64,000 nucleotides of DNA, from NCBI GenBank assembly GCA_035379625.1, contig DAOSVM010000006.1, positions 11,485 through 75,484 of the forward strand, read 5' to 3'. Numbering within the stretch: position 1 is the stretch's first letter; the number at the start of each line of letters is the position of its first letter. This stretch comes from Ignavibacteriales bacterium (lineage in GTDB: Bacteria > Bacteroidota > Ignavibacteria > Ignavibacteriales > DAOSCP01). Below are positions 1 to 63,300 of the stretch, piece after piece. The notes beneath the pieces were generated by a model. It worked only from the letters and a program-made list of their open reading frames with translations. It had not been told where the DNA came from and did no database searches. The translations under genes were made by a program, and so were the position numbers.

Positions 1-895
1 AAATTTGGAATTTTTGTAGAATGTTATAATTTTTTGTAGTTGGTATATCAATAAAATTATCATTATTTCTATCAATTTTCATATTACGAATATTTGTATT
101 GATGAAAGTAATACCACTAAATTCATGTGATAATTCATATTTATAAGAAGTATTAAATTCAAATCTTTCGTCAGAATCTGCATAAATATTTAAGTATAAG
201 TCTTTTCGATCGTGATCGTGCGAAGGGAGTAATTCGAAATCGATACTACCGGTCAAAGCTTCAAAACCATTTATTACGGAACCAACATCTTTTGAATAAC
301 TTATGGATTTTAACCAAGGGCCCGGAATGTATAAAAGACCGAGATTTGTTAATAAACCACGCAAATATGGAATATTTTCTTTGTTCGTTTGTATATTGGA
401 GCCTGTAAATCCCATAAATTCAATTTGCTTAATACCTGTAATAGCATCGGTGAAACTAACATCAATGGTGGGATTAGTTTCGAAACTTTCCGATAAATTA
501 CAACAAGCAGCTTTTTTAAGTTCTTTCTCTGATATTACTGCTTTTCGATGAACAGCATTAAAATCGTTGTATTCACCAAATCTTGATGAGGTAACTGTAA
601 TTTGTTTTAAATTAATAGTATTTGGCTGTAAACCTAATGAAAAATTATTTTCGATTTTGTAAAGAGTATCAGTGATAAAACCAACAGCATAAACGATAAG
701 AGGTTTATTGAGTTTTTGTATAGAAAATTTGCCGTTGTTATCTGATGTAGTTCCAATTTTCGAACCTAAATAATAAATTGCTGCTCCGGCAATTGGTTCT
801 TTGGTTTCGAAATTGTAAATAATACCATTTATAAATTGGTTTTGTCCAAATGCCAGAAAATTTAGTAGTAGTAATATTATTATTTGTATTTTCAT
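1..895 (-). CDS. TonB-dependent receptor, N-terminal part (partial; continues past the left window edge)
   Basis: Absent from the ORF track because there is no stop in the window. My minus-strand translation from ATG at 895 is open to position 1: MKIQIIILLLLNFLAFGQNQFINGIIYNFETKEPIAGAAIYYLGSKIGTTSDNNGKFSI.. (signal peptide plus carboxypeptidase-regulatory-like domain), then plug-like ..AACCNLSESFETNPTIDVSFTDAITGIKQIEFMG.. Confidence 0.7.
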   Translation of the reverse strand, partial: MKIQIIILLLLNFLAFGQNQFINGIIYNFETKEPIAGAAIYYLGSKIGTTSDNNGKFSIQKLNKPLIVYAVGFITDTLYKIENNFSLGLQPNTINLKQITVTSSRFGEYNDFNAVHRKAVISEKELKKAACCNLSESFETNPTIDVSFTDAITGIKQIEFMGFTGSNIQTNKENIPYLRGLLTNLGLLYIPGPWLKSISYSKDVGSVINGFEALTGSIDFELLPSHDHDRKDLYLNIYADSDERFEFNTSYKYELSHEFSGITFINTNIRNMKIDRNNDNFIDIPTTKNYNILQKFQI

Positions 896-915
896 GGATT
901 TAGTCCCTATTTTTA

Positions 916-1260
916 TTAATGAGTATTAGAGTTGTTTCTGTAAAGACAGCATTCAGGTAAAGTATTATAAATATTATCAGGAGCTTTATAATTTTCAGTA
1001 TCGTGGCCTGCAGCTGAAATTCTTTTTTCTAAGGAATCAAGTGATATTGAGTTAGAATAAATAATTTTTAATAACTTGGTTCTTTTATTCCATTTTGCAT
1101 ATTTTACTTCTGGAATTTTCAATGCTTCTTCAATTCTATTTTTACACATATTACAATTTCCAAAAACTTTAATAGTTTTTTCAATTTCATCGTTGTTTAA
1201 TGCAAAAAGTGTTAATGAAGTAATGACGATAAATAAAATGCTTTTCATGGCTATCCTCAA
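916..1260 (-). CDS. Heavy-metal-associated (HMA)-like small secreted protein
   Basis: 114 aa with a signal peptide. Has ..FGNCNMCKNRIEEALK.. and ..AAGHDTE.., resembling the HMA fold with a Cys pair. The start is more likely the second Met (1248). Lies directly downstream of the TonB-dependent receptor. Confidence 0.55.
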   Translation of the reverse strand: MRIAMKSILFIVITSLTLFALNNDEIEKTIKVFGNCNMCKNRIEEALKIPEVKYAKWNKRTKLLKIIYSNSISLDSLEKRISAAGHDTENYKAPDNIYNTLPECCLYRNNSNTH

Positions 1261-1313
1261 ATGTTTAATGAATGAATGAAATTAATAAAAAAGTTGATGG
1301 TAAATATTAAGGT

Positions 1314-1739
1314 CTAAATCAGAAGTGAGGAGTTTTTGATATATATTGGGTGTTTATGATTTGCTATTAAAAAATTAATATGCTTAAATGAGAAAAACTC
1401 AAATTGTAAGGTTGTTAAGAAAATAATACTTAATAAAGCTGGTAAGAAAAATATGTTTGATGAATTTTTGATTTGGGAATCATCAATTTTGTAATATTTA
1501 ACTATGTTTTCGCAACAATTAGATTGGGAATTAAATACTGTGGTGGAATTTTCGTTATTAATATTGTTAAGATCCAATTTACAATTGTGTTGACAATCGC
1601 AGTTTATATTTGATGAATTTATGGAGATTAAATGTTTAGTATTATGGCATATATGATCAATTTCTGTAAAACCGATAAAAGAAATTAAATAACTTAATAA
1701 AAGGATAGTATTAATTATTTTGATGTTTTTGTTGTTCAT
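1314..1739 (-). CDS. Cys/His-rich small membrane protein (possibly the HYC_CC_PP-type family found next to TonB receptor + HMA genes)
   Basis: 141 aa. N-terminal TM segment, DHICHNTKH, CDCQHNC and NCCEN motifs, second hydrophobic segment. The family name is recalled from memory and was not searched. Confidence 0.35.
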   Translation of the reverse strand: MNNKNIKIINTILLLSYLISFIGFTEIDHICHNTKHLISINSSNINCDCQHNCKLDLNNINNENSTTVFNSQSNCCENIVKYYKIDDSQIKNSSNIFFLPALLSIIFLTTLQFEFFSFKHINFLIANHKHPIYIKNSSLLI

Positions 1740-1866
1740 AACAAAAATATAATATTAATTTTATCAAAAAGCAAGAGCCTGTAAAATTTTTATATAAATG
1801 GTATAACATTATTATTTAGTAGTATAAAAATATCGTTTCAAAAATATAGTATATACAATATATATG

Positions 1867-1882
1867 TATCGTATATACGATA
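1867..1882. promoter_or_regulatory. Perfect 16-bp palindrome TATCGTATATACGATA (operator-like), ~110 bp upstream of the thrA ATG
   Basis: Read directly: the sequence equals its own reverse complement. It is flanked at 1831-1862 by further copies of the GTAWWTACRATATA motif that also builds the arrays inside the repeat elements. Confidence 0.5.
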
Positions 1883-1992
1883 TTAATTTTGTTTAAAGAA
1901 TTTTATTGAAATGTTTAAATGAATTTAATATTAAAGATTGATTTTTTTAATATAAATGTATACATTTAAACAAAATACTATTGGAGTAAAAT

Positions 1993-4440
1993 ATGAAAGT
2001 AATGAAATTTGGTGGATCTTCTGTAGGAAATCCTGAAAGAATAAAAAATGTAATAAAAATTATAAACGATAGTTTATTTACAAACAATATATTGATAGTT
2101 GTATTTTCAGCATTTCAAGGTGTAACGGATGAATTAATTAAATTAGGGAACAAGGCAACATCTGGAGTTTTCCCAGAGGATGATTTTAATACTTTAACAA
2201 AAAGACATATGGACGCAATTACAGAATTAGTTGCGATAAAATATAGAAGTAAAGCAATAGCTGATGTTAAAATAATTCTGAATGAGATAGAAGATATATT
2301 AAAAGGTATATCTTACATAAAAGATTTAACACGTAAGACATCAGATGTATTATTAAGTTATGGAGAAAGATTATCTGCCTATATTATTTACAACTCAATG
2401 AAACAATATGAAGATAACGTATATTATCTTGATAGTAGGGATGTGATCAAAACAGATTCTAACTATGGAATGGCAAATGTAAATTTTGAAATAACGAATA
2501 AATTAATACAAAATAGAATTAACAAGCAAGGGCTATATATAACAACAGGTTTTATAGCATCTGATGAGCAAGGGAACACAACAACTTTAGGAAGAGGTGG
2601 TTCTGATTATACTGCTTCTATATTTGGAGCGGCATTAGGTGTAGAAGTTATTGAAATATGGACAGATGTTGATGGTATTTTGACTGCAGATCCACGTTAT
2701 GTCCCATCAGCATTTTCTTTGAAGGATTTAAGTTATGATGAAGCAATGGAACTTTCTCATTTTGGAGCAAAAGTGATTTACCCGCCTACAATGCGCCCAG
2801 CGATGATTAAAAAAATTCCTATATTAGTTAAAAATTCTTTTAATCCAGAATTTCCGGGCACTAAAATTTGTATTAAGCCAACAAAAAATATTTATGATAT
2901 TAAAGGAATATCTAGCTTAAATGACGTTTGTTTGGTTCGTGTGCAAGGAAGTGGTATGATTGGGGTTAGTGGTATTGCTGGAAGGATATTTTCGGCTTTA
3001 GCAAAATCTAATATTAATGTTATTTTGATAACCCAGGCCTCAAGTGAGCATTCTATTTGTTTTGCAATTTTGCCAGAATATGAAAATCAAGCTTTAAAAG
3101 CTTTAAAACAAGAACTGAAATTAGAGATTGCAAATGGTATTGTAAATGAAATTTTGATAGATAAAAATTTATCAATTGTTGCTGTGGTTGGAGAAAATAT
3201 GAGGCATCGTGTTGGTTTAGCAGCTAAGGTTTTTAATTCATTGGGAAAATATGGCGTAAATATTGTTGCTATTGCTCAGGGTTCAACAGAATTAAATATA
3301 TCAGCTGTTATTTCTAAAAATGATGTAGCAAAAGCTCAAAATGCTATACATAATGCATTCTTTTTTGCAAATAGGAAAGAAGTTAATTTATTTATTGTAG
3401 GTTTAGGATTGATTGGTAAAACATTTTTAAAACAAATTAATGAGCGAATTGATTATTTGGTTGAATACCATAATATTCAGCCCAAAATTGTTGGTATTGC
3501 TAATTCTAAAAAAATGCTTATTGATGAGAATGGTATCGATATTTCGCAGATTGATGAAAAATTAATTGATGGTAAAAAAACTGATTTAACTATTTTTACT
3601 CAAAAAATGCAAGATTTAGCTATTCCAAATAAGATTTTTATAGATTGTACAGCTAGTGAAGAGCCTATTAATTTTTATCCTGAAATATTAAATAATAGAA
3701 TATTTATTGTTACACCGAATAAAAAAGCAAATTCTTCAAATATTAAATTTTATCATAAAATTCATTCGGCTGCTAAAGAAAATTATGCTGGTTTTTATTA
3801 CGAAGCTAATGTAGGAGCAGGTTTACCAATTATTAATACAATTAAAGATTTAATTGCATCCGGTGATGAAATTATTAAAATTGAAGGTGTACTATCTGGT
3901 ACTATAAGTTATTTATTTAATAATTTAAAAGGGAATAAAAAATTTAGTGATATTTTAACAGAGATTAAGGGTAAAGGTTTCCTTGAACCAGATCCAAGAG
4001 ATGATTTAAGTGGGATGGATGTTGCCCGTAAAATTCTAATTCTTGCAAGAGAAGCAGGTAGCTTAATTGATTTAAATAAAGTAAATGTTGAAAATTTAAT
4101 TCCTAAACATATTAATATAGTAAGCGTTGAAAATTTTTGGAATAAAATTTACTTATTGGATGATTATTACGAAAAATTAATCGAAAAAGCTGATAAATCT
4201 AATACAGTTTTGAGATATATTGCTACATATAACAAAATTGAGGATAAAGCAAATGCTAAGATTAACTTTATTCCTAAGGAACATCCATTTTTCAATTTAA
4301 GAAATAGTGAAAATATAGTCGCAATTTATACAAATAGATATTTGGAGTTGCCGTTAATTGTTAAAGGACCAGGAGCCGGCGCAGAAGTAACTGCAGGGGG
4401 CGTTTTTGCTGATTTCTTAAAAGCTGCTAAAGTAATTTAA
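1993..4440 (+). CDS. thrA: Bifunctional aspartokinase / homoserine dehydrogenase
   Basis: 815 aa. N-terminal aspartokinase (MKFGGSSVG..), central ACT-like regions, C-terminal homoserine dehydrogenase (..GAGLPII.., ..EPDPRDDLSG.DVARK..). Followed by thrB. Confidence 0.93.
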   Translation: MKVMKFGGSSVGNPERIKNVIKIINDSLFTNNILIVVFSAFQGVTDELIKLGNKATSGVFPEDDFNTLTKRHMDAITELVAIKYRSKAIADVKIILNEIEDILKGISYIKDLTRKTSDVLLSYGERLSAYIIYNSMKQYEDNVYYLDSRDVIKTDSNYGMANVNFEITNKLIQNRINKQGLYITTGFIASDEQGNTTTLGRGGSDYTASIFGAALGVEVIEIWTDVDGILTADPRYVPSAFSLKDLSYDEAMELSHFGAKVIYPPTMRPAMIKKIPILVKNSFNPEFPGTKICIKPTKNIYDIKGISSLNDVCLVRVQGSGMIGVSGIAGRIFSALAKSNINVILITQASSEHSICFAILPEYENQALKALKQELKLEIANGIVNEILIDKNLSIVAVVGENMRHRVGLAAKVFNSLGKYGVNIVAIAQGSTELNISAVISKNDVAKAQNAIHNAFFFANRKEVNLFIVGLGLIGKTFLKQINERIDYLVEYHNIQPKIVGIANSKKMLIDENGIDISQIDEKLIDGKKTDLTIFTQKMQDLAIPNKIFIDCTASEEPINFYPEILNNRIFIVTPNKKANSSNIKFYHKIHSAAKENYAGFYYEANVGAGLPIINTIKDLIASGDEIIKIEGVLSGTISYLFNNLKGNKKFSDILTEIKGKGFLEPDPRDDLSGMDVARKILILAREAGSLIDLNKVNVENLIPKHINIVSVENFWNKIYLLDDYYEKLIEKADKSNTVLRYIATYNKIEDKANAKINFIPKEHPFFNLRNSENIVAIYTNRYLELPLIVKGPGAGAEVTAGGVFADFLKAAKVI

Positions 4441-4449
4441 GGGTTTAAG

Positions 4450-5391
4450 ATGTTAAAAAAAAATTATATTAAAGTATTTTCTCCCGCTACAATAGCTAAT
4501 TTTACTTGTGGTTTTGATATTTTCGGTGTTGCATTGGAAAATCCTGGTGATGTTGTAGAAATAGAAATTAACAATAATTCAAATGGAATAAAAATTTTGG
4601 AAATTACTGGCGATAATGGATTGTTACCTTATGAAATAGAAAAGAACACAGTAACAATATCTTTATTAAAGTTTTTGAATGATTTTGATTTAAAAGTTGG
4701 TTTAAATATTAAAATACATAAAAAAATGCCATTTGGTAGTGGCTTGGGATCAAGTGCTGCAAGTAGTGTAGCTGGCGTATATGCGTTAAATCAGATGTTA
4801 GAAAATCCTTTGCCTAAAGATAAATTATTGGAATATGTTTTAGAAGGCGAAAAAAAAGTAAGTGGTTCTATTCACGCTGATAATGTTGCTGCTTGTTTGT
4901 ATGGTGGATTTATTATTGTTAAGCAATATCCGAAATTGGAAATTATAAAATTAAATGTGAAAAAAAATTATTATTTCTCAATAATACATCCGCATATCGA
5001 AGTAAAAACCGAAGATGCTAGAAAGATTTTGCGAAAGGATATTAAATTAGAACTTGTAACTAAACAATGGGGTAATATTGCTACAACAGTAATTGCTTTG
5101 CAAAATGGTGATGACGAATTGTTGAAAAATTCTTTGATTGATATAATAATTGAGCCTGTCAGATCAATATTTATTCCGGAATTTACCACCATTAAAAATA
5201 TTGCTTATGAAAATGGTGCACTTGCTGCAAGCATTTCTGGTTCCGGCCCATCAGTTTTTTCTGTTTTTAATGATAAATCATTGGCTGAAATTTCGCTAAA
5301 TTTACAAGCTGAGGCACTTAAAAAAATTGGAATTTCATCGGATCTTTATATTAGCCAGATGAATTTTGAAGGTGTAAAGGTAATTCCTTGA
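4450..5391 (+). CDS. thrB: Homoserine kinase
   Basis: 313 aa GHMP kinase with motif PFGSGLGSSAAS. Lies 9 bp downstream of thrA. Confidence 0.9.
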   Translation: MLKKNYIKVFSPATIANFTCGFDIFGVALENPGDVVEIEINNNSNGIKILEITGDNGLLPYEIEKNTVTISLLKFLNDFDLKVGLNIKIHKKMPFGSGLGSSAASSVAGVYALNQMLENPLPKDKLLEYVLEGEKKVSGSIHADNVAACLYGGFIIVKQYPKLEIIKLNVKKNYYFSIIHPHIEVKTEDARKILRKDIKLELVTKQWGNIATTVIALQNGDDELLKNSLIDIIIEPVRSIFIPEFTTIKNIAYENGALAASISGSGPSVFSVFNDKSLAEISLNLQAEALKKIGISSDLYISQMNFEGVKVIP

Positions 5392-5431
5392 TTATTTTAA
5401 ATTTATAGATATTGAAGAGAATCTTTATATT

Positions 5432-6021
5432 TAGCTCGGACGGTGTAGGCTTAAGCCCGTGCGCTGTGCGCACGGGCGGGCTGAAGCCCAAAATATTCGA
5501 TTTACTACGCTATATACAACCTTTTATCAATTGCTTCCAATAATTATATATTTACCATATAGATTTAACATAAATATTTTAATTTGGTTGCAAATTTTAA
5601 AAGCCTGATAATATTTTCGTAAAAATGATATAATTGTATTTACGATATATTAACAAAATTCAGAAATATATTTGTATTTACAATATAATTGTATATACGA
5701 TATATTAGTAATTTTCGATGACATATTTGTAAATACGATATAATAGCTTTTACGATATAATTGTAAATGCAATTATATTATAAAAAAACATCGCATCAAA
5801 TGTAAAAATTTGCAAAATTACATATTAGCTTCGTTAAAAGCTTAATTTTTATCTAACACTTTACGGGTTGCCTGGTATTTTGGAAAGATATGAGTATAAA
5901 GGCTCAAAGCACTACACTTTGTTAGGTGTCAAAGAAAAGATTTTTAGCGGGCCGGAACTGCCCGCTGCCCCTTGCGGCTTGTCACAAGCCGCAAGGGGCT
6001 TAAGCTTACACCGTCTGAGTA
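5432..6021 (+). mobile_element. Non-coding TIR-bounded repeat element, copy 1 (A end to B end on the + strand), 590 bp
   Basis: Left end TA|GCTCGGACGGTGTAGGCTTA; right end TAAGCTTACACCGTCTGAG|TA. Hairpins at 5455-5477 (10-bp stem), 5478-5489, 5946-5966 and 5968-5998 (13-bp perfect stem). AT-rich core holds the 17-bp repeat array. Homologous to the copies at 37503, 54943, 58506 and 25056. Confidence 0.85.
5616..5777 (+). repeat. Tandem array of nine ~17-bp units (consensus WTTGTAWWTACRATATA) organised as 3 x 55-bp higher-order repeats
   Basis: Units read directly: ttcgtaaaaatgatata / attgtatttacgatata / ttaacaaaattcagaaatata / tttgtatttacaatata / attgtatatacgatata / ttagtaattttcgatgacata / tttgtaaatacgatata / atagcttttacgatata / attgtaaatgcaattata. 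Lengths 17+17+21 three times (last unit 18) total 162 bp. Confidence 0.85.
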
Positions 6022-6046
6022 ATATAATAAAAAAAATGAAGATATT

Positions 6047-7291
6047 TTATTTATTTGTGTTAGGAACTATTTTATAGATTTGTAAATTTCGTCGTAGTGG
6101 TTTATCAATTTTAAATGTTATTATATCACCTTTTTTTGCGTTATCGACAAATTGCTCGTTACACATTATATTTTCTAATTGATATTCATAAGTTCCGAAA
6201 TCGTTTCCGATTATTAGTATTTTGGAATTTTTTTCAATTGTACCAGTTTCAATTTTGATTTCGGCTATATTTGTTTTTTTGAAGAAATTTGTGACTTTGC
6301 CAATATATTCTTTTTTAGTGGTAGCAATGGAGCCATAGGCTTTGGTGAATTCATTAGTTCCGGGCTCACCGAAATAAAATCCAGAAGAAAAACCGCGATT
6401 GTACACTTCGTTTAATTCATTTAAGAATTGTTGTTTAATAGTAGGGGTATATTTCCCATCTAGAATTAAATCAATTGCTTTTTTATATATAGAAACGGTT
6501 TTGCTAACATATTCAGGAGAGCGTTTGCGGCCTTCAATTTTTAAGGAATCTATGCCAATTTCTATGATTTGATCGAGAAATTCAATAGAACATAAGTCTT
6601 TTGGAGAAAGGACATAATCAGTGCCTAAAATAAGGCTTTTGTTTGTAGCATTATCAACAATTTCGTATTCTTTAACGGTGAAATCTCTGCGGCAAGGTTG
6701 AATACATTCGCCGCGGTTGGCGCTTTTACCGAACATATCGTGGCTGAGGAAACATCTTCCACTAATTGAGATACACATTGCGCCGTGGACGAATACTTCA
6801 ATTTCAGCTTTTGTTTTTTTTCTAATTTGTTTGATTTGTTCTAGAGTACATTCTCTTGCAAGTACAACTCTGCTAGCACCTATTTTTTCATAAAAATTAG
6901 CAGCTGAAGAGTTTGAAATAGATGCTTGTGTGGAAATTGCAAATTTTACATCGTATTTTTGGCAAAGATTAATAACAGCAAAATCCCAGCAAATTATCAT
7001 ATCTACGCCAGCTTTTTTGGCTTTTTTAACAATTTTTTCAGCTAATTTTAATTCATCTTCATAAACAATTGTATTGAGAGTTAAATAAGCTTTAACGTTG
7101 TTTTTATGAGCAATTTTGACTAATTTATTCATTTCATCAAAGCCAAAATTTTTGGCTTTAGCTCTCATATTTAATTCATCAACACCAAAATATACTGCAT
7201 CGGCGCCAGCATTTATTGCAGCATAGAAGGAAATCCAATCTCCTGCCGGTGCCATTAGTTCGGGGCGTTTTATTTTTACGTTTTTCCTCAT
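6047..7291 (-). CDS. Peptidase U32 family protein
   Basis: 414 aa. N-terminus ..PELMAPAGDW..AAINAGADAVYFG.., ..KIEGRKRSPEYV.. and a Cys-rich centre, typical of U32 collagenase-like proteins. Confidence 0.85.
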   Translation of the reverse strand: MRKNVKIKRPELMAPAGDWISFYAAINAGADAVYFGVDELNMRAKAKNFGFDEMNKLVKIAHKNNVKAYLTLNTIVYEDELKLAEKIVKKAKKAGVDMIICWDFAVINLCQKYDVKFAISTQASISNSSAANFYEKIGASRVVLARECTLEQIKQIRKKTKAEIEVFVHGAMCISISGRCFLSHDMFGKSANRGECIQPCRRDFTVKEYEIVDNATNKSLILGTDYVLSPKDLCSIEFLDQIIEIGIDSLKIEGRKRSPEYVSKTVSIYKKAIDLILDGKYTPTIKQQFLNELNEVYNRGFSSGFYFGEPGTNEFTKAYGSIATTKKEYIGKVTNFFKKTNIAEIKIETGTIEKNSKILIIGNDFGTYEYQLENIMCNEQFVDNAKKGDIITFKIDKPLRRNLQIYKIVPNTNK

Positions 7292-9467: not shown

Positions 9468-9474
9468 AAAAAAA

Positions 9475-9546
9475 GGGCTACACAGCAATCATCCTTACCG
9501 TTGCTGCCTTCCGGCCCTGGCGGGGTTGGGGACTATGCTGTTAGCC
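9475..9546 (-). ncRNA. ffs: Signal recognition particle RNA (small 4.5S type)
   Basis: Minus-strand RNA: GGCUAACAGCAUAGUCCCCAACCCCGCCAGGGCCGGAAGGCAGCAACGGUAAGGAUGAUUGCUGUGUAGCCC followed by U9. It contains the SRP domain IV signature CAGG-CCGGAAGG-AGCA with a GGAA tetraloop. The 5' GGCUAACAGCA pairs with the 3' UGCUGUGUAGCC. Exact ends are uncertain. Confidence 0.7.
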
Positions 9547-9550
9547 AATG

Positions 9551-25055: not shown

Positions 25056-25116
25056 TAGCTCGGACAGTGTAAGCTTATCCCGCGCATTAGCGCGGGTAGC
25101 TATCGCTAAAAATATA
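25056..25116 (+). mobile_element. Truncated copy of the repeat element (A end only)
   Basis: TA|GCTCGGACAGTGTAAGCTTA, hairpin cccgcgc-atta-gcgcggg, mini-hairpin tagc-tatc-gcta, then AAAAATAT. There is weak similarity to the element interior up to about 25250 (..attttaccataaaatattt..). No repeat array, B end or second TIR. Confidence 0.7.
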
Positions 25117-27394: not shown

Positions 27395-29011
27395 ATGATA
27401 AAAGATGAAATATTAAAAAAAATAGGTATAATAATCAATATTTTGAAATATTATGATGAAAATAAATTCAAAATTTTAGCTTATGAGAAAGTTATTGATA
27501 TTATTGAAAAAATTAATGAAAATGAATTGATTTCGTTACTTCAAGAGAAAAGAATAACAGAAGTTGAAGGAATTGGAAAGGGTATTAGTGAAGTTTTATA
27601 TGAAATTTATGAAAATGGCAATGCAAAAATAATTAATGAATTTGTAGAAAATTATGGCGAGGAATTTTTAGATTTGTTTAAGATTAAAGGTTTAGGCGTA
27701 AAAAATATAAAAAAACTTTTTGATTTGTATGGTGTTAATTCATTTGATAAGTTGGATGAATTGTTGGCAAGTGGTGTAAAATTAAAAGAACCTAAATTGA
27801 AAGAAAGTTTAATAAAGAATATAAGAGAACAAATTCCATTTTTGAAAGAAAGTAAGTATAAGTATATATATCCAATAGCCTTGCGAAAAGCTGAGAGGAT
27901 GAAAAAAGTATTAGAAGAAATAGAGGGCGTTGAAATAGTAGAGTTTACGGGTGAAATAGAACGATACGCAGAAGTAGTAAATTTTATAGAGATGGTAGTG
28001 TTATGTAATGGGGATTTATTTAATGAATTGGTGAAAAATTTTGGAAATGTAGAACAAAGAAAAATAAAATTATTTGATTTAGAGCTTGATATCTATCTAA
28101 TTTATTATGATGGGGCACATTATAAGTTATACCACGTTTACGGAAAAAATGATTTAGGGAAAGTTATCAAGTTGACGCGGGCAACGCTTATACTGTCCGA
28201 GCCAATAAAAGATTTAAAAATATTTGAAAAATTTATACCAGAGATGTGGGAAATTGAGAATATAGGGAAAGAGGTTGAAAATGAAAAAATAGTAAAGTAT
28301 GAAGATATTGTTAGTGTTTTGCATTTTCATACGAATTGGAGTGATGGTAGTAATACATTGGAAGAGATGTTTGATGGGATAGAAAAGAGTAAATTTGAGA
28401 TTGCTGGGGTGTGCGATCACAGTAAATCGTCGTTTTGGGCTAACGGATTGAGTGAGGAGGAGGTTTTACAGCAGCATAAAGTTATTGAAGAGTTGCAAAA
28501 AAAGTATAGGATTAAGTTATTAAAAGGCATAGAGTGCGATATACATAAAGATGGTAGTTTGGATTATGGAGATGGTTTTTTGAAAGAGTTTGATTTTGTG
28601 GTAGCTGCTATTCATCAATTTACAGATGATGATGAGGAATTTTATACAAAGAGGATGATAAAAGCAATTGAGAATCAATATGTTAATATAATAGCTCATC
28701 CAACAGGTCGACTATTACTAACAAGGCTGCCGTATCCGATAGATATTTATAAGGTTATAGATGCTTGTGCAAGTAATAATGTAGCAATTGAAATAAACTC
28801 TACTCCATCTAGAATGGATTTAAGTTGGAAGTATTTGGATTATGCGATGAATAGAGGGGCGAGATTTGCTATTAATCCTGATGCGCATTCGACACAGGAA
28901 ATTTTTAATATTGAATATGGTGTTAAATCTGCAAGAAAGGCAGGTGTTTATAAAGAATATGTTATAAATACATATAAATTGGATGAGTTGTTAAGGTGGT
29001 TTAATAAGTAA
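27395..29011 (+). CDS. PolX-like protein (HhH/pol-beta-like N-terminal region + C-terminal PHP phosphoesterase domain)
   Basis: 538 aa. Has ..VEGIGKGISE.. and ..IKGLGVKNIKKL.. HhH motifs, and a PHP domain from ..LHFHTNWSDGS... The middle (28186-28206) contains a sequence resembling the repeat-element terminus. Confidence 0.65.
   Translation: MIKDEILKKIGIIINILKYYDENKFKILAYEKVIDIIEKINENELISLLQEKRITEVEGIGKGISEVLYEIYENGNAKIINEFVENYGEEFLDLFKIKGLGVKNIKKLFDLYGVNSFDKLDELLASGVKLKEPKLKESLIKNIREQIPFLKESKYKYIYPIALRKAERMKKVLEEIEGVEIVEFTGEIERYAEVVNFIEMVVLCNGDLFNELVKNFGNVEQRKIKLFDLELDIYLIYYDGAHYKLYHVYGKNDLGKVIKLTRATLILSEPIKDLKIFEKFIPEMWEIENIGKEVENEKIVKYEDIVSVLHFHTNWSDGSNTLEEMFDGIEKSKFEIAGVCDHSKSSFWANGLSEEEVLQQHKVIEELQKKYRIKLLKGIECDIHKDGSLDYGDGFLKEFDFVVAAIHQFTDDDEEFYTKRMIKAIENQYVNIIAHPTGRLLLTRLPYPIDIYKVIDACASNNVAIEINSTPSRMDLSWKYLDYAMNRGARFAINPDAHSTQEIFNIEYGVKSARKAGVYKEYVINTYKLDELLRWFNK
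28186..28206 (+). repeat. Solo TIR-like remnant of the repeat element inside the PolX-like ORF
   Basis: cgcttatactgtccgagccaat (28185-28206) versus the copy-5 terminus agcttacactgtccgagctaat gives 19/22 identities, same polarity as a right end. It is preceded by a GC-rich mini-palindrome gcgggcaacgc. Confidence 0.5.
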
Positions 29012-37483: not shown

Positions 37484-37502
37484 ATTTTAAAAGAATCATA
37501 AT

Positions 37503-37992
37503 TAGCTCGGACGGTATAAGCTTAGCCCCCGTGCGCACGCAGGCGCACGGGGGCAGCGGGCCGGAACGGCCCGCAAAAATGATAAATCTTACGAAGCCGC
37601 TGTGTAATATTATAAATTTATTAATTTGATGTGTTTTTTATATAATTGTATTGACGATTATATTGTAAAAACAATAATATAGTAAATGCGAATATATTTT
37701 TAAAAGTTGTAATAATATCGTATATGCAATTATATCGTAATAGCGAATATATTTTAAAAATTGTTTAAATATCGTAAATGCAAATATATTGTATATACGA
37801 ATATATTATAAGACTTTTGCATTTGCCAGTAATATTTAAAATTTTTCGAATATTTTAATATGGTAAATAATGTAAATGTTGTAAGTAGTTGATAATATTA
37901 TAGATAAGTAGGCATAATTGGAATAATTTTTGGCGTCAGCCTGCCCGTGCGCCTTCGTGCGCACGGGCTTTATGCTTACACTGTCTGAGCTA
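37503..37992 (-). mobile_element. Non-coding TIR-bounded repeat element, copy 3 (B end first on the + strand), 490 bp
   Basis: TA|GCTCGGACGGTATAAGCTTA ... TATGCTTACACTGTCTGAGC|TA. B-end hairpins at 37526-37553 and gcgggccg-gaa-cggcccgc; A-end hairpin cccgtgcgc..gcgcacggg at about 37945-37967. 17-bp array at about 37641-37805. Confidence 0.85.
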
Positions 37993-38010
37993 ATGGAGAT
38001 TTTTATTGCT

Positions 38011-52521: not shown

Positions 52522-53851
52522 ATGGATGTCTTATTACTCTCCCGAATCCAATTTGCAATTACTGTAGGGTTTCATTTTTTGTATCCTCCAATGAGTATTG
52601 GGCTTGCTGCTTTAATCGTTTTTTTGGAGGGTATGTATTTAAAAACAAAAGACAAAATGTATGAAGAATTAGTAAAATTTTGGATCAAAATTTTTGCTGC
52701 AACATTTGCTGTAGGAGTAGCAACAGGCATAGTAATGGAATTTGAGTTTGGTACTAATTGGTCTAAATATTCTCGTTTTGTTGGGGATGTTTTTGGTAGT
52801 CCTCTTGCTGCCGAAGGCGTTTTCGCTTTCTTCCTTGAATCTACTTTCTTAGGAGTATTACTTTTCGGTTGGAAAAAAGTTAGTCCCAAAATGCATTTTT
52901 TCTCTGCTTTAATGGTAGCTATAGGTTCAATATTAAGTGCTTTTTGGATTTTAGTTGCTAACTCTTGGCAACAAACACCACAAGGTTATCATATTGTCAA
53001 TAATAATGGAGTTTTAAGAGCTGAAATTGTTGATTTTTGGGCAATGGTTTTTCAATCCATCAACTGTTGATAGATTAATTCATACAATATTAGCTTCCTT
53101 TATGACAGGTGGTTTTTTTATGCTAAGTATAGCAGCCTATTATTTATTAAAGAAAGTTCACGTTGAACATGCAAAAAAAATGTTTAAAGTTGCTATTATT
53201 TTTACAGCTGTAGTATCACTACTTGAGTTAGCATCAGGACATAGTAATTCCCAAATGATTGCAAAACATCAACCAGCTAAACTTGCTGCTGCTGAAGCAC
53301 ATTATGACTCTTTATCAAAAGCTACACTTTATTTATTCGGTTGGGTTGACGAAAAAGAACAAAAAGTTTACGGAATTGGCATCCCTGGTATGTTAAGCTT
53401 CCTAATTTCGGGTGATTTTAATTATCCTGTTAAAGGTTTAAATGCTTTCAAAAAAGATGAAATTCCACCAGTCAATTTTGTCTTCCAAAGCTATCATATT
53501 ATGGTTGCACTTGGAATGTTAATGATCGCATTAAGTTTATTCGGCGTTTACCTTCTGTGGAAAAATAAAATTGATGCCTATCCATGGTTTCTCAAAATCC
53601 TTTTAATATCATTTATTTTCCCTCAACTTGCAAATCAGTTTGGTTGGATTACTGCTGAAGTCGGTAGGCAACCTTGGGTGGTTTATGGATTAATGAAAAC
53701 CAAAGATGCTTTTTCTCCTATATTAGATGCCGGGCAAGTATTATTTTCTATAATTCTATTTTCTTCTATCTATTTGTTATTGTTAGCTTTATTTGTTTTT
53801 GTCGTAGTTAAAAAAGTTAAAGCTGGCCCAGTAGAACTTAATAAAAATTAG
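52522..53851 (+). pseudogene. cydA: Cytochrome bd ubiquinol oxidase subunit I, split by a +1 frameshift at the T5 run 53048-53052
   Basis: ORF 52522-53070 (..[16 protein letters not shown].., ..[14 protein letters not shown]..) and ORF 53027-53851 (..[11 protein letters not shown].., ..GRQPWVVYG..) together make one CydA. Removing one base in atggTTTTTcaat restores ..[15 protein letters not shown].. Confidence 0.85.
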
Positions 53852-54939: not shown

Positions 54940-54942
54940 ATA

Positions 54943-55507
54943 TAGCTCAGACAGTGTAAGCTTAAAGCCCGTGCGCCGTGCGGCGCACGGGCAGGCTAAC
55001 GCCCAAAATTTTTCCCCAATACATTCCAATTAATTTTACCAATTTATTTTAATATTTTTACATTTAGCAAAATAACTAAATATTGTTTAATTATTCTTTT
55101 GTATGCTTAATGATAAATACAAAATTAAACATAATATCGTTATAATTATACATCAGATATTACAATAAAATTGCGTTTAAGATATATTATTAATTTTCAA
55201 TAATATATATACAAAAACAATATAATTGCTTATACGATATAATTGTAAATACAATCATATTATATAGAAATCAGAAATAAATATAAAAATATGCAAGATT
55301 ACATATTAGATTTAACAAAAAAAATCAGTCAAACATACAATCTGCACTGCATTTTGACGCTGCATTATAAGAGATGTGGAATTATGAAACTGTTAAGCTA
55401 CACTTTGTAAGGTGATAATGAAAAGATTTTTAGCGGGCCGTTCCGGCCCGCTGCCCCTTGCAGCTTTCCACAAGCTGCAAGGGGCTATACCTATACTGTC
55501 TGAGCTA
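54943..55507 (+). mobile_element. Non-coding TIR-bounded repeat element, copy 4 (A end to B end on the + strand), 565 bp
   Basis: TA|GCTCAGACAGTGTAAGCTTA ... TATACCTATACTGTCTGAGC|TA. A hairpin 54967-54992 (11-bp stem). B hairpins are agcgggccg-ttc-cggcccgct and 55454-55484 (13-bp perfect stem). The 17-bp array at about 55130-55262 is more degenerate. Confidence 0.85.
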
Positions 55508-55675
55508 TATTATTCCTGTATCTTATCAAAAATGTAAAAAAAATATTAATAATATTGTAAAATTGCTGCTATAAAAAATTAGTAGCAAAATTAATAATAA
55601 TTTAATACTGTAATGAGAAAATTGATAATAATTATGATTATATTACATTAAAACAAATCATTTATAAGGAATCAA

Positions 55676-57285: not shown

Positions 57286-58629
57286 ATGTTACCCCAAAAA
57301 AATGACACATTTTGGAGAAACCTTGTTACAGGTAAAATCGAACATGAATTTAATTTTATGGTTGCTAGTCTACTTGTAAAAAGATTAAATTTAACTACTT
57401 ATTTCGACCCTTCTGAAGAAACCATAAGTAAATGTATTGATGAAGTATATGATTTTTTTACAAAGTATCAAAAATTTTTAAATAAAGATATAATTCCATT
57501 GCTTGGTATTCCAAGTATTATGCAACTTATGACAGTTGAGCAGGCAAAAGAAGAAATTAAAAAGGGAAAAAATTTAATTATTGCCGGAAATGAAAAAATA
57601 CTATCTGCTTTACCAGCCGGTAATTGGATAGCTGGTACAAGTAATTCTTTCATTGATAAAAACTCGTGTATAACAACTGATGATTTATTGTTTGTAAATG
57701 AACTACCATACTACATTGAAAATATAAAAATTGAAGAATTTACAGAAAATAATATTCAAAATATAAATAGAAATTCCTACGATAATGGCTTTACAATATT
57801 AATTTTACCATTTGAAAGTAAAATACATATTAAATATGCAAAAAATGCAGCGTTCTTTGAAAGTATTTATACATCACCTATAATAGGTTGGATAGCTGGA
57901 GATATTGATAATTCCCGAGCAAAAATATTTAATGGTAAAGAGCTTACATCATCATCTCATAAAGGCATTGCAATGTATTGCGAACTACCCAAAGATAAAA
58001 CTGCAAAATTAAGTATAATAAATTTGTTTAAACCAAATTTAAATTATAAAATTGAATTTTTAGAAGATAGTTTCTACATTAATGAAGCCTTAGTAAACGG
58101 TAAAAAAGTTAAATTTTTAGAATTTTTAAAAAGCATGAATTACGATATAAAAAACCCGCTTACAGCAAATTTGTATGGTTCCTTCATAAATGTAAGCTTT
58201 AAAGAAATTATTAATGACAATATTTATATGTACGCCCCTGTTTTCAAAGGAACTGAATACCATTTATCGATACCTATAAGTAATTACGTAGATGAATTTA
58301 ATTCAATAGAACAAATAAACGCTAACCCAGTATTTAGTTGTCATTGTATATTAAATTATAAATATTCGGAGTTAGAAGGGAAAAAATTAAATAATTTTTA
58401 TGGACCGTCTACATATGGAGAAATAGGCTATATTTTACTAAATCAGACAGTAGCATATTTAGAAATATTAAAAAAAAGCTGTCTTGTAAGGCAGCTTATT
58501 TTATTTAGCTCAGACAGTATAGGCATAGCCTCTTGCGGCTTGTGCCAAGCCGCAAGAGGCAGCGGGCCGGAACGGCCCGCTAAAACTCTTTCTTTATCAC
58601 CTTACAAAGAGCGGTGCTTTATGGCCTAA
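57286..58629 (+). CDS. Hypothetical cytoplasmic protein; the last ~41 codons are read from a terminator and repeat-element copy 5
   Basis: 447-aa ORF with no recognisable motif. From about 58476 the frame passes through a terminator hairpin and then the element B end (..FSSDSIGIASCGLCQAARGSGPERPAK..). Confidence 0.5.
   Translation: MLPQKNDTFWRNLVTGKIEHEFNFMVASLLVKRLNLTTYFDPSEETISKCIDEVYDFFTKYQKFLNKDIIPLLGIPSIMQLMTVEQAKEEIKKGKNLIIAGNEKILSALPAGNWIAGTSNSFIDKNSCITTDDLLFVNELPYYIENIKIEEFTENNIQNINRNSYDNGFTILILPFESKIHIKYAKNAAFFESIYTSPIIGWIAGDIDNSRAKIFNGKELTSSSHKGIAMYCELPKDKTAKLSIINLFKPNLNYKIEFLEDSFYINEALVNGKKVKFLEFLKSMNYDIKNPLTANLYGSFINVSFKEIINDNIYMYAPVFKGTEYHLSIPISNYVDEFNSIEQINANPVFSCHCILNYKYSELEGKKLNNFYGPSTYGEIGYILLNQTVAYLEILKKSCLVRQLILFSSDSIGIASCGLCQAARGSGPERPAKTLSLSPYKERCFMA
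58476..58505 (+). terminator. Rho-independent terminator-like hairpin (inside the 3' end of ORF 57286-58629)
   Basis: aagctgtc-ttgtaa-ggcagctt followed by attttattt. The sequence is related to the terminator at 57151. Confidence 0.6.
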
Positions 58630-59035
58630 ATATTCAAATCTTTCCAAAATACGCGGCAGCTTACAATTGATGCGATTTTTTTTTATAATATAACTGCATT
58701 CCCAATTATATCGTAAAATCAATTATATTGTATTTACAAATATATTATTAAAAATTACTAATATATCGTATATACAATTATATTACAAATACAAATATAT
58801 TTTTAAAAAAAAGAATATATCGAAAATACAATTATATCGTAATTACGAAAATATTTTAATATTTTTAAAGTTTGGTATTACTTTGGAAAATTTTTAATCA
58901 ATAGTTATATTGGTAGATGTATAAATGTTGTATATGGTTGATATTATGTAAGATATGGTTTAATTAGTGAAATATATTTTGGGCGTTAGCCCGCCCGTGC
59001 GGCGCACGGGCTTTAAGCTTACACTGTCCGAGCTA
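58506..59035 (-). mobile_element. Non-coding TIR-bounded repeat element, copy 5 (B end first on the + strand), 530 bp
   Basis: TA|GCTCAGACAGTATAGGCATA ... TTAAGCTTACACTGTCCGAGC|TA. B hairpins are 58529-58559 (13-bp perfect stem) and gcgggccg-gaa-cggcccgc. A hairpin is cccgtgc-ggc-gcacggg near 58994-59010. The interior aligns well with the reverse complement of copy 1. Confidence 0.85.
58689..58849 (-). repeat. Tandem array of nine ~17-bp units (reverse-complement form TATATYGTAWWTACAAW), 3 x ~55 bp
   Basis: Units: tataactgcattcccaat / tatatcgtaaaatcaat / tatattgtatttacaaa / tatattattaaaaattactaa / tatatcgtatatacaat / tatattacaaatacaaa / tatatttttaaaaaaaagaa / tatatcgaaaatacaat / tatatcgtaattacgaa. 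Confidence 0.85.
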
Positions 59036-59043
59036 ATGAAGTA

Positions 59044-60240: not shown

Positions 60241-60389
60241 TAAAAAACTCCTAATATTTTTTTTATTTGAAATTAATATAAATATATTTTAATTTTCTTT
60301 AAATTTATTTTTGAAATAAATTTATATTGCATAATTAAACAATTATTTTTATCTTTTTTATATTTCAATAATAACTTATTGAGTGGGTT

Positions 60390-63300
60390 ATGGGGACATC
60401 TGGTAAAAAATTAAATAAAATTTATCTAATATTTGCTCTTACAACGTTTATAATTGTTAGTATGCATATATATTTTATTAGGCTAAGGCAAAACGAAGAG
60501 GTTAAAACACTTATTAATGAAAAAAACAAAGAATTAGAATTAAAATTAAATAATTATTTAAACAATATAAATAAGTTTTCCATAAAATTTACTAATACCG
60601 ATTATGTTAGAAATATAGTTTTTAAAAATAAAGAAGATAAGATAATTGATGTTGCAACAACAGTTGATGGAATATTTATTATTAACGCTAAAAATAAATT
60701 GTTATTAAGTTATTTAGGTAAAGAAATTAAAAATACTCCTACTAACGAAAATAAAATTTTAAAACAAATAACCGAAATTCAAAATTCTTTACAAATAAAA
60801 GATAATAAGAATTTTTACAGTTTTTTTTATGAACTTAACGGCAAACCAATATATTATACATTTAATAGACTAAATGATGAGAATAATAAATTAAGTGCTT
60901 TTGTTATTACCGCTAAAATAATTGATGATTTTAATAAAATAATTGACCTTGATACTTTTAGCTATTATAAAACTTCAAAAAATCTTTATGAACAATTAAG
61001 TCAAGATAATGAAATTATTGGGAATAAATATACTCTCTACTATCCTTTCTATTCTTATGGAAGGAATGATTCGTTAATTTTTGTTAAAGCAGTTTTTGAG
61101 TATAATAATAAAGATTACAACCCATATAAAAATTATATTGTTATTTTAGCAAATATTATAATTTTAGTAATATTACTTTATTTGATTTATACAATAATAC
61201 ATCGCACTTTTAATAAAGATATAAAAAAATTATCGGATAAAATTGAAAAATTTAACAGCGATCATATTTATGATCCTTTTGAATTAGAAAATGATAATTT
61301 ATTAAAAAAATTATCTGAAGTTGTTAATATTTTAATGCGAAATTACAATACTATAAATTTGGAGTGTAGAGAAAATAAATCAATTCTAGAAGCTATAAAA
61401 ATTCAAAAATATATAGGGTTTGCTATTTTTGATAAAGAAACTGGTAAAATTATAGACTACAACGAAGCATTCCCATCAATATTAAAGTTACATAGTAATA
61501 TTATAGAAATAAAAACCATTTATGATATTTTACAGATCAATGAACCATCATCTAGTTTTTTAGTTAATTTATTTATTGGACAAAAGGAGATAAAAACTGA
61601 TAATGACAATAAAATAAATGTTCTATCTTTTGCTAAAGAAATTGAAAATAGCAATTTATGTGTTATTTCAATTATTGATAATACAGAAAACATAAAAACA
61701 CAATATGAATTGGAAAATTTGAGAAATGATTATAATAGATTTTTAGCAATAACTCATGTTTTACTTAAAACAAATAATATTTTTGAACTTCAAGCAGCAA
61801 TAAAAGATGAAATTGCTCAATATTTAAATTGTGATGGTATTGAGATATATCAAGTCATGGAAAGTCATAAATCTATTACTATATTAAATAATGCTATTAA
61901 TGGTGAGTTAAGCAATGATATCTCTTATAGTATACTCGAAATTTTCCAAGAACTTAATACAAATCACATCACTTTAATTAATGGGGAATATAATTCCTCC
62001 AAATTTTTGGGAACAAATTATAAATATACAGAACTGTTTGCTATTGTTGTTAATGATAAAGTTATGCTCCTTATAGGATTATTTAATCATGATTCAAATA
62101 TTGATAATGTAGAGTTGTTTAATGAAATAGTGAGTCTTATCGGTATTGTTATCGAAATAGCCGTTTATCATTATAAAAATCAAGGAGAGCTTAAAGAACA
62201 AAGTCTATTGAATTTGAAATTAGAAAAAGAAATTGATGTTAAAATAAAGGAATTAGAAAATGTTAACAAGCAGTTGCAAGAAGAAATAAATAATAGAAAA
62301 ACTTATGAAAAGCTCCAAGATGCTTTATTTAAAATTTCAGATAGTTTTACATATTCTAAAACAATAACAGAATTATTTCAAAATCTTCATCAGATTTTAT
62401 CAGATTTGATGTATGCAAAGAATTTTTATATAGCTTTTTATGATGAAAGTACAAACTTCTTATCTTATCCTTATTTTGTTGATGAATACGATGATCCACC
62501 TGCACCAGAACCATTAGGGAAAGGGTTAACGGCGTATACTTTAAGACAAAAAGAAATGGTACACGTTAATGAAAGTGAGATTTATACTTTAGCTGAAAAA
62601 AATGAAATAGAAATATTAGGGAGTGTATCTAAAGATTGGGTCGGTGTACCTCTAATTGTAGATGGTAAAGCCGAAGGGGCACTAGTTATTCAAATTTACA
62701 CTGATGATTACAAGTATACAAAAAATGATGAATATATTTTAAATTACATAGCGCAAAATATATCAAAGTCATTAAAAAGTTTATATGATGCGCAAAAGTT
62801 AAGAGATTCTGAATTATTATTTAGAACTATATGGGATAATTCTGCTGATGGAATGCGACTAACTGATGCAAGGGGATATATAGTAGATGTTAATGAAGCT
62901 TTTTGTAAAATAACAGGCATACCTAAAAATGAATTGTTAGGCAAATTATTTGAAGATATTTATGATAATGAAGACAATCGTCGTAATGAAAGCTTAAAAA
63001 GATATTGTGAGAGATTTGCAAAAAGAGAAATTAAAAACTTATTTGATGTTAAAGTAAAATTCAAATCTGGTAAAGAATTATTTCTTGAAATATCAAACTC
63101 TTTTATTACACATCCAAATGGAGAAACATTATTACTTTCAATTTTTAGAGATGTAACCGCAAAAGTTTTAAGTAATGAGCAAAATAAATTGTTATCCCAA
63201 ACATTGCAGAGTATTAGTGAAGCTGTTACTATTTGTGACGAAAACGATAATTTGATATTTGTTAATGAAGCTTTTGAAAAACTATATGGATATAGAAAAG

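Follow-up and report, generated by a model that had tools for sequence, protein, structure and literature searches.

The DNA analysed in this work is a stretch of 64,000 nucleotides (the window) belonging to an uncultured digester Ignavibacteriales, hereafter called species A, whose ThrA is 99.9% identical to HOP49599.1, a protein from a metagenome-assembled genome. The region of interest is situated upstream of thrA (1993-4440, + strand), which codes for a bifunctional aspartokinase/homoserine dehydrogenase of 815 aa containing the Pfam domains AA_kinase, ACT and Homoserine_dh. Nine nt after thrA and in the same orientation lies thrB (4450-5391, + strand), coding for a homoserine kinase (GHMP kinase), and on the other side a divergent DUF8199 gene (1314-1739, - strand) is the first gene of an operon that also encodes an HMA-like protein and a TonB-dependent receptor. 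Positions 1827-1886 of the window, between the divergent genes, read aaaatatcgtttcaaaaatatagtatatacaatatatatgtatcgtatatacgatattaa. In this segment, dyad 2 (1867-1882, no strand), TATCGTATATACGATA, is a perfect 16-bp palindrome (16/16) exactly where an earlier note on this DNA had placed it, and its core is the 14-bp dyad ATCGTA-TA-TACGAT. Dyad 1 (1845-1860, no strand), TATAGTATATACAATA, has a symmetry of 14/16 and its centre is found 22 bp upstream of that of dyad 2, and an upstream half-site (1830-1838, + strand), ATATCGTTT, forms the start of a conserved block. The two to three motif copies that had been described about 110-165 bp upstream of thrA correspond to these two dyads and the half-site, which together occupy the segment 107-166 nt upstream of the thrA ATG (1993). 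On its left side the dyad segment is separated from the start of the DUF8199 gene by 128 nt. The GC content of the region is 25% and no GC stem is present in the sequence. The motif of the dyads is also the one repeated in the internal arrays of four small elements of the window, E1 to E4.

Only two further lineages were found to possess a ThrA of more than 55% identity, namely species B (locus L082 and the five strain variants L156-L160) and species C (locus L083). The ThrA of each is 76% identical to that of the window, and the two are 81% identical to each other. The sequences upstream of these thrA genes share a block of 147 bp (1830-1976, + strand), composed of the half-site, the two dyads, a spacer and a putative core promoter, which is aligned with zero gaps and with 65-66% identity in each pair of the three species. 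The remaining intergenic DNA displays 46-51% identity with many gaps, which is the background level, the best ungapped match of shuffled sequences being 54%. The dyad is kept upstream of the orthologous thrA of species B and C, in a gap-free context. Dyad 2 is TATCGTATATACGATA in species A, TATTGTATTTACAATT in species C and TATCGCATCAACAATA in species B; its arms are intact in C (ATTGTA-TT-TACAAT) and kept in part in B. Dyad 1 is TATAGTATATACAATA in species A and TATAGTATATGCAATA in species C. The half-site ATATCGTTT is identical in species B, and species C has a TTTACAAT half-site instead. In both arms, the conserved dyad positions are the G and the C (TATYG...CRATA) amid an AT-rich background, and the 15 kb of the species B locus contain the pattern TATYG-N6-CRATA a single time, in the orthologous place, for which species C has a version with one mismatch. 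A generic N-terminal pattern scan of the genome collection revealed no dyad upstream of thrA among the listed ThrA homologues of at most 47% identity. Within species, the six species B strains are uninformative because they are identical across the dyads and the promoter, with one substitution upstream of the block; in species A, the palindrome is retained in two other strains, one of which has a T-to-C change in dyad 1.

The gene order of species B allows the block to be attributed to one of the two divergent operons. In this species, an M6 peptidase gene with its own terminator stands between the DUF8199 operon and thrA; the block remains with thrA, and neither dyad nor block was found upstream of DUF8199. 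Since the block stays with thrA, the dyad module is assigned to thrA and not to the divergent metal-cluster operon, which corrects the earlier note.

The right end of the block reads TTGATT-N17-TACATT in species A and C and TTGACT-N17-TACATT in species B, with identical spacing. Conservation ends a few nt past the -10 box, and the stretch from there to the ATG measures 24, 54 or 79 nt. Because conservation stops at this point and is followed by a segment of variable length, as expected of a transcription start and a 5' untranslated region, TTGAYT-N17-TACATT is proposed as the thrA core promoter. On the basis of this conservation, the putative promoter would comprise the -35-like hexamer TTGATT (1938-1943, + strand) and the -10-like hexamer TACATT (1961-1966, + strand), the latter being kept in all three species and alternatively readable as a Bacteroidetes-type -7 box, TACATTTA. 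Another candidate promoter, TAATTTTG (1884-1891), is a perfect Bacteroidetes-type -7 box directly after the palindrome. It is partly kept in species B and absent in species C, and TTGAYT-N17-TACATT was preferred because all three species retain it. Another perfect 16-bp palindrome (1953-1968, no strand), TAAATGTATACATTTA, overlaps the putative -10 box, 71 bp after the first one. It is palindromic in neither species B nor species C, and its ATGTAT is one end of a 92-bp deletion observed in the natural strain L086.

In each of the three species, exactly 78 nt separate the end of dyad 2 from TACATT, so that the centres of the dyads would be located near -100 and -122 from the putative transcription start. 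Within the elements, the core G[TC]AWWT[AG]C is spaced by 17, 34, 38 or 55 bp (about 90 pairs) and never by 22 bp; a core-to-core spacing of 22 bp is confined to thrA, where species A and C have it. The exclusivity of this spacing indicates that the thrA pair is not simply a piece of an array and, as 22 bp represents about two helical turns, both dyads would be exposed on one face of the DNA. Dyad symmetry, conservation in orthologous promoters and fixed phasing to the putative promoter, as expected of an operator, are all found at thrA.

Nothing points to control of thrA by an RNA or by a translated leader in this clade. No Rfam family was detected at 1200-6200, even at E values up to 1, and neither a terminator nor a Thr/Ile-rich leader peptide open reading frame (ORF) was found upstream of thrA in A, B and C. 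An RNA element was rejected in view of the three-species consensus fold (-2.7 kcal/mol), the lack of meaningful covariation and the z of -1.4 obtained for a DNA hairpin. A hidden small ORF behind the gap-free conservation was rejected as well, no ORF of at least 20 aa spanning 1810-1946. The nearest outgroup, L162, which is Ignavibacteriaceae-like and has a ThrA of 54% identity, displays a textbook Thr-leader attenuator before thrA, made of the leader peptide MSTTTTTTGMPGG (leader/terminator region, 584-625 and 663-691) and then an 11-pair terminator. The same terminator is present in the second outgroup contig (L161, 10-50), and the operon order of the outgroup is thrA-asd-thrB-thrC. The match of L162 to the Rfam Thr_leader family (RF00506) is full-length and weak (24 bits versus a gathering score of 55), and for this reason Ignavibacteria may hold an unrecognised variant of the Thr leader. 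The thrL attenuator occupies the same place as the dyad module and presumably does the same job, the feedback control of thrA; it is present in the outgroup and without counterpart in A, B and C. From this distribution, the dyad module seems to have taken over from the attenuator in the A/B/C clade.

The four elements of the window, E1 (5432-6024, + strand), E2 (37499-37992, - strand), E4 (54943-55509, + strand) and E3 (58503-59035, - strand), measure about 500-590 bp, and each combines GC-rich hairpins and the inverted terminal repeat TAGCTCRGACRGTGTA with an internal array built from 17-bp units. The arrays are located at 5607-5765 in E1, where the units are WTYGTAWWTACRATATAATT, at 37660-37811 in E2, at 58703-58859 in E3 and, in a degenerate form, at 55162-55270 in E4. 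One element is encountered per 10-15 kb of the window, and 5-8 motif copies are carried per element in at least two or three species. The boundaries of E1-E4 can be read as TA-GCTCRGAC...GTCYGAGC-TA (5430-5433, 6020-6026, 37497-37500, 37990-37994, 54941-54944, 55508-55511, 58501-58504 and 59034-59037), a reading which implies a TA target duplication, as in miniature inverted-repeat transposable elements (MITEs) of the IS630/Tc1-mariner type. A literature search gave no papers on MITEs in Ignavibacteria. Two solo element ends were also observed, a left one composed of the terminal repeat and hairpin (25056-25115, E = 7e-6) and a right one (28168-28205, E = 0.011), the rest of the element being absent. 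The right third of the elements (5860-6000 in E1, with equivalents in E3 and E4) shows conservation from copy to copy and a high GC content (...CACTTTGTWAGGTGWYAAAGAAAAGATTTTTAGCGGGCCG...); a structured RNA may be encoded there, and no Rfam match was obtained.

A metagenome scan with the right-end hairpin pattern retrieved 41 loci with a total length of 392 kb, most of which come from a single digester sample; they hold 57 element matches, 32 of them distinct near full-length copies. The population that they represent, population D, is derived from the same sample series as species B. It differs from species C (77% nucleotide identity in a shared gene) and also from species A, since none of the loci overlaps the window. 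Its arrays yield an unchanged logo, WTYGTAWWTACRATATAATT, and their units are spaced by 17 bp in 71 cases and by 38 bp in 33. Species B has its own divergent element subtype (L156, 15960-16570), located 2.5 kb downstream of thrB, with the same ends, a different interior and looser TACGATA arrays. All three species A strain contigs whose sequence continues beyond thrB have the E1 insertion behind that gene, and species B lacks it. The 19 kb of sequence available for species C yielded no elements. An element of a different type with the same terminal repeat (TTAGCTCAGACGGTGTAAGC) was observed at 5830-5990 of locus L125, where a long hairpin, GGTGGCAATTATAT / ATATAATTGCCACC, has the dyad ATCGTATATACAAT in its loop. 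Viral contigs scanned with the array and hairpin patterns gave only isolated single matches, in contigs none of which fits the element model or has a second copy of the pattern.

The significance of the thrA dyads was evaluated separately for their symmetry and for their likeness to the element motif. Seven perfect palindromes of at least 16 bp are present in the window versus 3.5 expected from dinucleotide shuffles, and 97% of the shuffles contain at least one. The perfection of the 16-bp palindrome is not statistically remarkable by itself and is specific to species A, and it was dropped as evidence after the shuffles. The operator shape put forward in the earlier note is thus retained for the orthologous dyad and its fixed distance to a conserved promoter, but not for the perfection of the palindrome.

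The likeness to the element motif was assessed with a consensus and with weight matrices. With at most one mismatch, the consensus GTAWWTACRATATA matches at 1849 (+), 1865 (-) and 1871 (+), in the arrays of three of the four elements and at one stray position with one mismatch (54449), which represents 14 matches in total versus 1.1 expected. The four best non-element scores given by the weight matrix of the window arrays in 61 kb are all found at 1840-1887 (19.7, 16.1, 15.9 and 15.6); no further non-element match reaches 13, and the null maximum has a mean of 13.2 and a 95th percentile of 16.6. The outcome at thrA was the same with a matrix derived only from 145 array units of population D. 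With array-only matrices, the dyads upstream of thrA are the top non-element matches in species A (61 kb), C (18.8 kb) and B (17 kb), and dyad 2 alone is the best or second-best non-element match. When the matrix of a foreign species is applied, the top position of each locus is the orthologous thrA site in A, B and C, the score of B being non-significant alone. The match of the thrA dyads to the element motif exceeds chance, and the identity of this motif with that of the arrays, as claimed previously, is confirmed by the consensus and by the array-only matrices.

Outside the elements, the exact 14-bp dyad ATYGTAWWTACRAT was encountered three times in 469 kb of partial genomes versus 0.15 expected. 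All three sites are intergenic (3/3) and correspond to thrA in species A, thrA in species C and the region upstream of an M6 peptidase gene in population D. When one mismatch is tolerated, 16 non-element sites are obtained versus 5 expected, of which 6-7 are intergenic. Among these are one site upstream of glmS, one that a GH94 gene and a histidine kinase gene flank, and a cluster between a GWxTD-domain gene and a phosphoesterase gene. No helix-turn-helix regulator was noticed among the genes beside the examined solo sites. As the targets do not form an obvious regulon and two sites resemble array relics, the evidence from other promoters is only suggestive.

The thrA segment was further compared with the whole element. 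With a whole-element nhmmer model, no match to the inverted terminal repeat TAGCTCRGACRGTGTARGC was found in 1-5431, and no match to model positions 1-90 or 497-596, which would reveal GC hairpins, was found near thrA. The sensitivity of nhmmer can be considered adequate because solo ends, such as the left one mentioned above, are detected. An array of at least five units with 17- and 38-bp spacing, and hence a super-period of 55 bp, is not present at thrA, where only two dyads and a half-site exist. In agreement with the earlier note, the absence of element ends and the different spacing support the view that the thrA segment is not another element copy. At the level of the array unit (17-20 bp), a match is present at thrA, with weight-matrix scores of 15-20 that are the top four of the non-element positions. 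At the level of the 60-bp array sub-unit, the best non-element matches of the profile are thrA in species C, thrA in species A and the M6 peptidase site, with E values of only 0.02-0.05. The thrA sub-unit, AAAAATATA-GTATATACAATATATAT-[GTATC]-GTATATACGATAT, can be superimposed on the element's AAATATATTTGTATTTACAATATAATTGTATATACGATAT as a spacer and two motifs with a 5-bp insertion. Local alignment of the thrA intergenic region with E1 gave a z of 7.4, and hand re-scoring indicated that the bulk of the score comes from the motif pair of about 50 bp, the other 95 bp contributing about 14 score units. Homology of the whole intergenic region to E1 was rejected, the score being mainly that of the motif pair and the profiles supporting nothing beyond about 48 nt. 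Because the similarity covers one sub-unit (spacer and two motifs), common descent of the thrA piece of about 50 bp and the array sub-unit, in either direction, is plausible. The alternative origin offered in the earlier note, the eroded core of an old insertion, is contradicted in its neutral form by the conservation of the block.

The arrangement was compared with known systems. In PMC2649163, the Correia elements (CREE) of Neisseria are described as small non-coding elements with inverted terminal repeats, present in many intergenic copies, containing an IHF site and able to affect neighbouring genes. The likeness to CREE and to MITEs with host-factor sites lies in small, non-coding, repeat-bounded intergenic elements, whose arrays may here too be bound by a host protein. 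CREE carry a single IHF site, whereas the E1-E4 family carries 5-8 dyads in a regular array of 17- and 38-bp spacing. Moreover, the dyad studied here also exists outside the elements, as a conserved and differently spaced pair in a housekeeping promoter. Compared with known MITEs with host-factor sites, the novelty lies in regular arrays with many motif copies, together with a conserved counterpart that is phased differently and stands in the promoter of a biosynthetic gene. In eukaryotes, transposable elements multiply motifs that double as host regulatory sites. Those are single sites, whereas the present case is bacterial and concerns arrays. Plasmid-type iterons, several direct repeats of 17-22 bp next to a replication initiator gene or an origin, were also considered and rejected, thrA having two dyads and no rep gene, with thrA, thrB, DUF8199 and the TonB-dependent receptor as neighbours.

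Two families of regulators recognise boxes that resemble the dyads. TreR is a member of the GntR/HutC family. The TreR box of the Bacillus trehalose operon is TTGTATATACAA / ATGTATATACAA (PMC11356801). It is a near-identical dyad when compared with ATTGTATATACAAT, present in the elements, and with TAGTATATACAAT, present at thrA, and TCGTATATACGA, and the likeness is a resemblance only. The dyads share with GntR/HutC boxes a GT-N4-AC core, an AT-rich centre and a palindrome of about 12 bp, and two boxes per promoter are typical of that family; the positions of the thrA dyads near -100 and -122 would be unusual for one of its repressors. Neither the vicinity of thrA nor the window as a whole yielded a gene of the GntR family. 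In the Lrp/AsnC family, the optimal site of the archaeal TvFL3 is TACGA[AAT/ATT]TCGTA (PMC2715240). Lrp/AsnC boxes are AT-centred palindromes with 5-bp arms, the TACGA/TCGTA arms being the same as here, and the family is characterised by cooperative binding at several phased boxes and by control of amino-acid metabolism. At thrA, the order of the arms is inverted (TCGTA-TA-TACGA) and the centre is of 2 bp versus 3-5. A Lrp-like 5-5-5 layout exists only in the element arrays, in another register (TACRA-TATAA-TYGTA), and it too is a resemblance only.

Three other features of the window were recorded. The gene for cytochrome bd subunit I (cydA, 52522-53851) is split into two overlapping ORFs (52522-53070 and 53027-53851), which may reflect a frameshift, a pseudogene or an assembly error. 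In the region 60241-62959 (2.7 kb), where the GC content is about 22%, several tandem repeats occur and ORFs of 110 aa or more are absent. A bacterial small signal recognition particle RNA (Rfam RF00169, 53.9 bits) is located at 9469-9550 (- strand).

The explanation that we favour, to which we attach slightly better than even confidence, is that the thrA segment forms the upstream half of a cis-regulatory module, specific to this lineage, which serves the thrA-thrB operon and is bound by a dimeric protein that also recognises the arrays. The module would consist of two 14-16-bp dyads of consensus ATYGTA-WW-TACRAT and one half-site. Two dimers of a DNA-binding protein of the helix-turn-helix type would occupy the dyads cooperatively and, from their fixed phase, would control the initiation of thrA, either by upstream activation or by architectural repression, thereby doing in this clade the job of the Thr-leader attenuator of the outgroup. 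One and the same protein would also recognise the element arrays, with their 5-8 motif copies spaced by 17 and 38 bp. A number of observations weigh against this explanation. The only match of the whole-element model at thrA is a non-significant one of 48 nt (1835-1883, E = 7.2), and the thrA block matches the 60-bp array unit with E values of 0.04-0.1, marginal or non-significant after composition correction. Dyad 1 has decayed in species B, whose dyad 2 score of 13.4 does not exceed the null range of a locus this large, and the putative thrA promoter is assigned by conservation only. The neighbours of the other non-element dyads are functionally unrelated and form no coherent regulon in about 0.5 Mb of partial genomes, at least two of these sites keep the 17-bp array spacing and resemble array relics, and no DNA-binding domain or helix-turn-helix regulator was detected in the 20 regulator-sized ORFs of the window. 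Finally, in the species A strain L086 (159-kb contig, JGI sample 3300038505), the 92-bp deletion between ATGTAT repeats (1864-1869 and 1956-1961; L086 9840-10000) eliminates the -35 box together with most of dyad 2, so that dyad 1 comes to lie beside the -10 box, suggesting either that the site is dispensable or that this strain is deregulated.

Other explanations have to be weighed with these observations. The block could be a domesticated array fragment, a part of an element or array having been inserted upstream of thrA in the ancestor of A, B and C and having lost its ends, so that a two-motif piece was kept for regulation, perhaps at the time at which the ancestral Thr-leader attenuator disappeared; such a scenario differs from the favoured explanation by the origin of the segment and overlaps with it in function. 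The extent of the similarity, which spans a full array sub-unit and goes beyond a single dyad, the z of 7.4 with E1, the presence of elements in at least A, B and population D, hence an old family, the other intergenic solo sites resembling array relics with 17-bp spacing, and the different ancestral thrA control displayed by the outgroup are in its favour. We nevertheless regard this origin as doubtful, since no trace of a terminal repeat, of hairpins or of another internal segment accompanies the 48-nt match (E = 7.2), the z of 7.4 is mostly due to the motif pair of about 50 bp, the 22-bp spacing is seen in none of the about 90 core pairs within elements and the 19 kb of species C are devoid of elements. 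The opposite direction, in which a clade-specific operator would have replaced the Thr-leader attenuator and would then have been captured and amplified by the MITE family with 5-8 sites per copy, is put forward just as tentatively.

It is improbable, in our opinion, that the likeness between thrA and the arrays is a coincidence, the block being conserved as AT-rich promoter DNA (curvature, a UP-like element or the site of an unrelated factor) and the resemblance arising from the limited vocabulary of a 29%-GC sequence. Perfect 16-bp palindromes are indeed expected by chance here, the profile E values are marginal or non-significant after bias correction and the weight-matrix null maximum occasionally reaches 20-21, but the four best non-element scores of 61 kb fall within 50 bp, the top match is at the orthologous site in three species even with the matrix of another species, the conserved dyad positions are precisely the G/C ones (TATYG...CRATA) and the exact 14-mer is about 20-fold over-represented outside the elements. 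TonB-receptor operons are commonly under repressor control, and in A and C the dyads are in a divergent intergenic region shared with the DUF8199/HMA-like/TonB-receptor (metal uptake) operon, 128 nt from the DUF8199 start codon; they could accordingly be the operator of that operon, for instance the site of a metal-responsive repressor, their proximity to thrA being incidental. This we consider very improbable: the two operons are separated in species B by the M6 peptidase gene and its terminator, with the block on the thrA side and no DUF8199 dyad, and the block, which has no gaps, keeps a fixed register to the thrA promoter; the DNA toward DUF8199 is unconserved.

Because the organisms are uncultured and the regulator is hypothetical, the module upstream of thrA is for now, as a comparison of genomes, a well-supported lead, and no mechanism is claimed. 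It points to a swap of control mechanism within one order, between a Thr-leader attenuator in the outgroup and a protein-operator-like module in the present clade. If the operator was captured by the MITEs, hundreds to thousands of genomic decoy sites would titrate the regulator or recruit new genes to it, and this would be a case of bacterial transposon-driven spread of regulator sites, coupled to amino-acid biosynthesis. Titration by sites carried on mobile DNA has mainly been a topic of eukaryotic biology. Should the thrA dyads and the arrays be bound by one protein, these Ignavibacteriales would offer a tractable bacterial model of mobile DNA spreading or soaking up the sites of a regulator.

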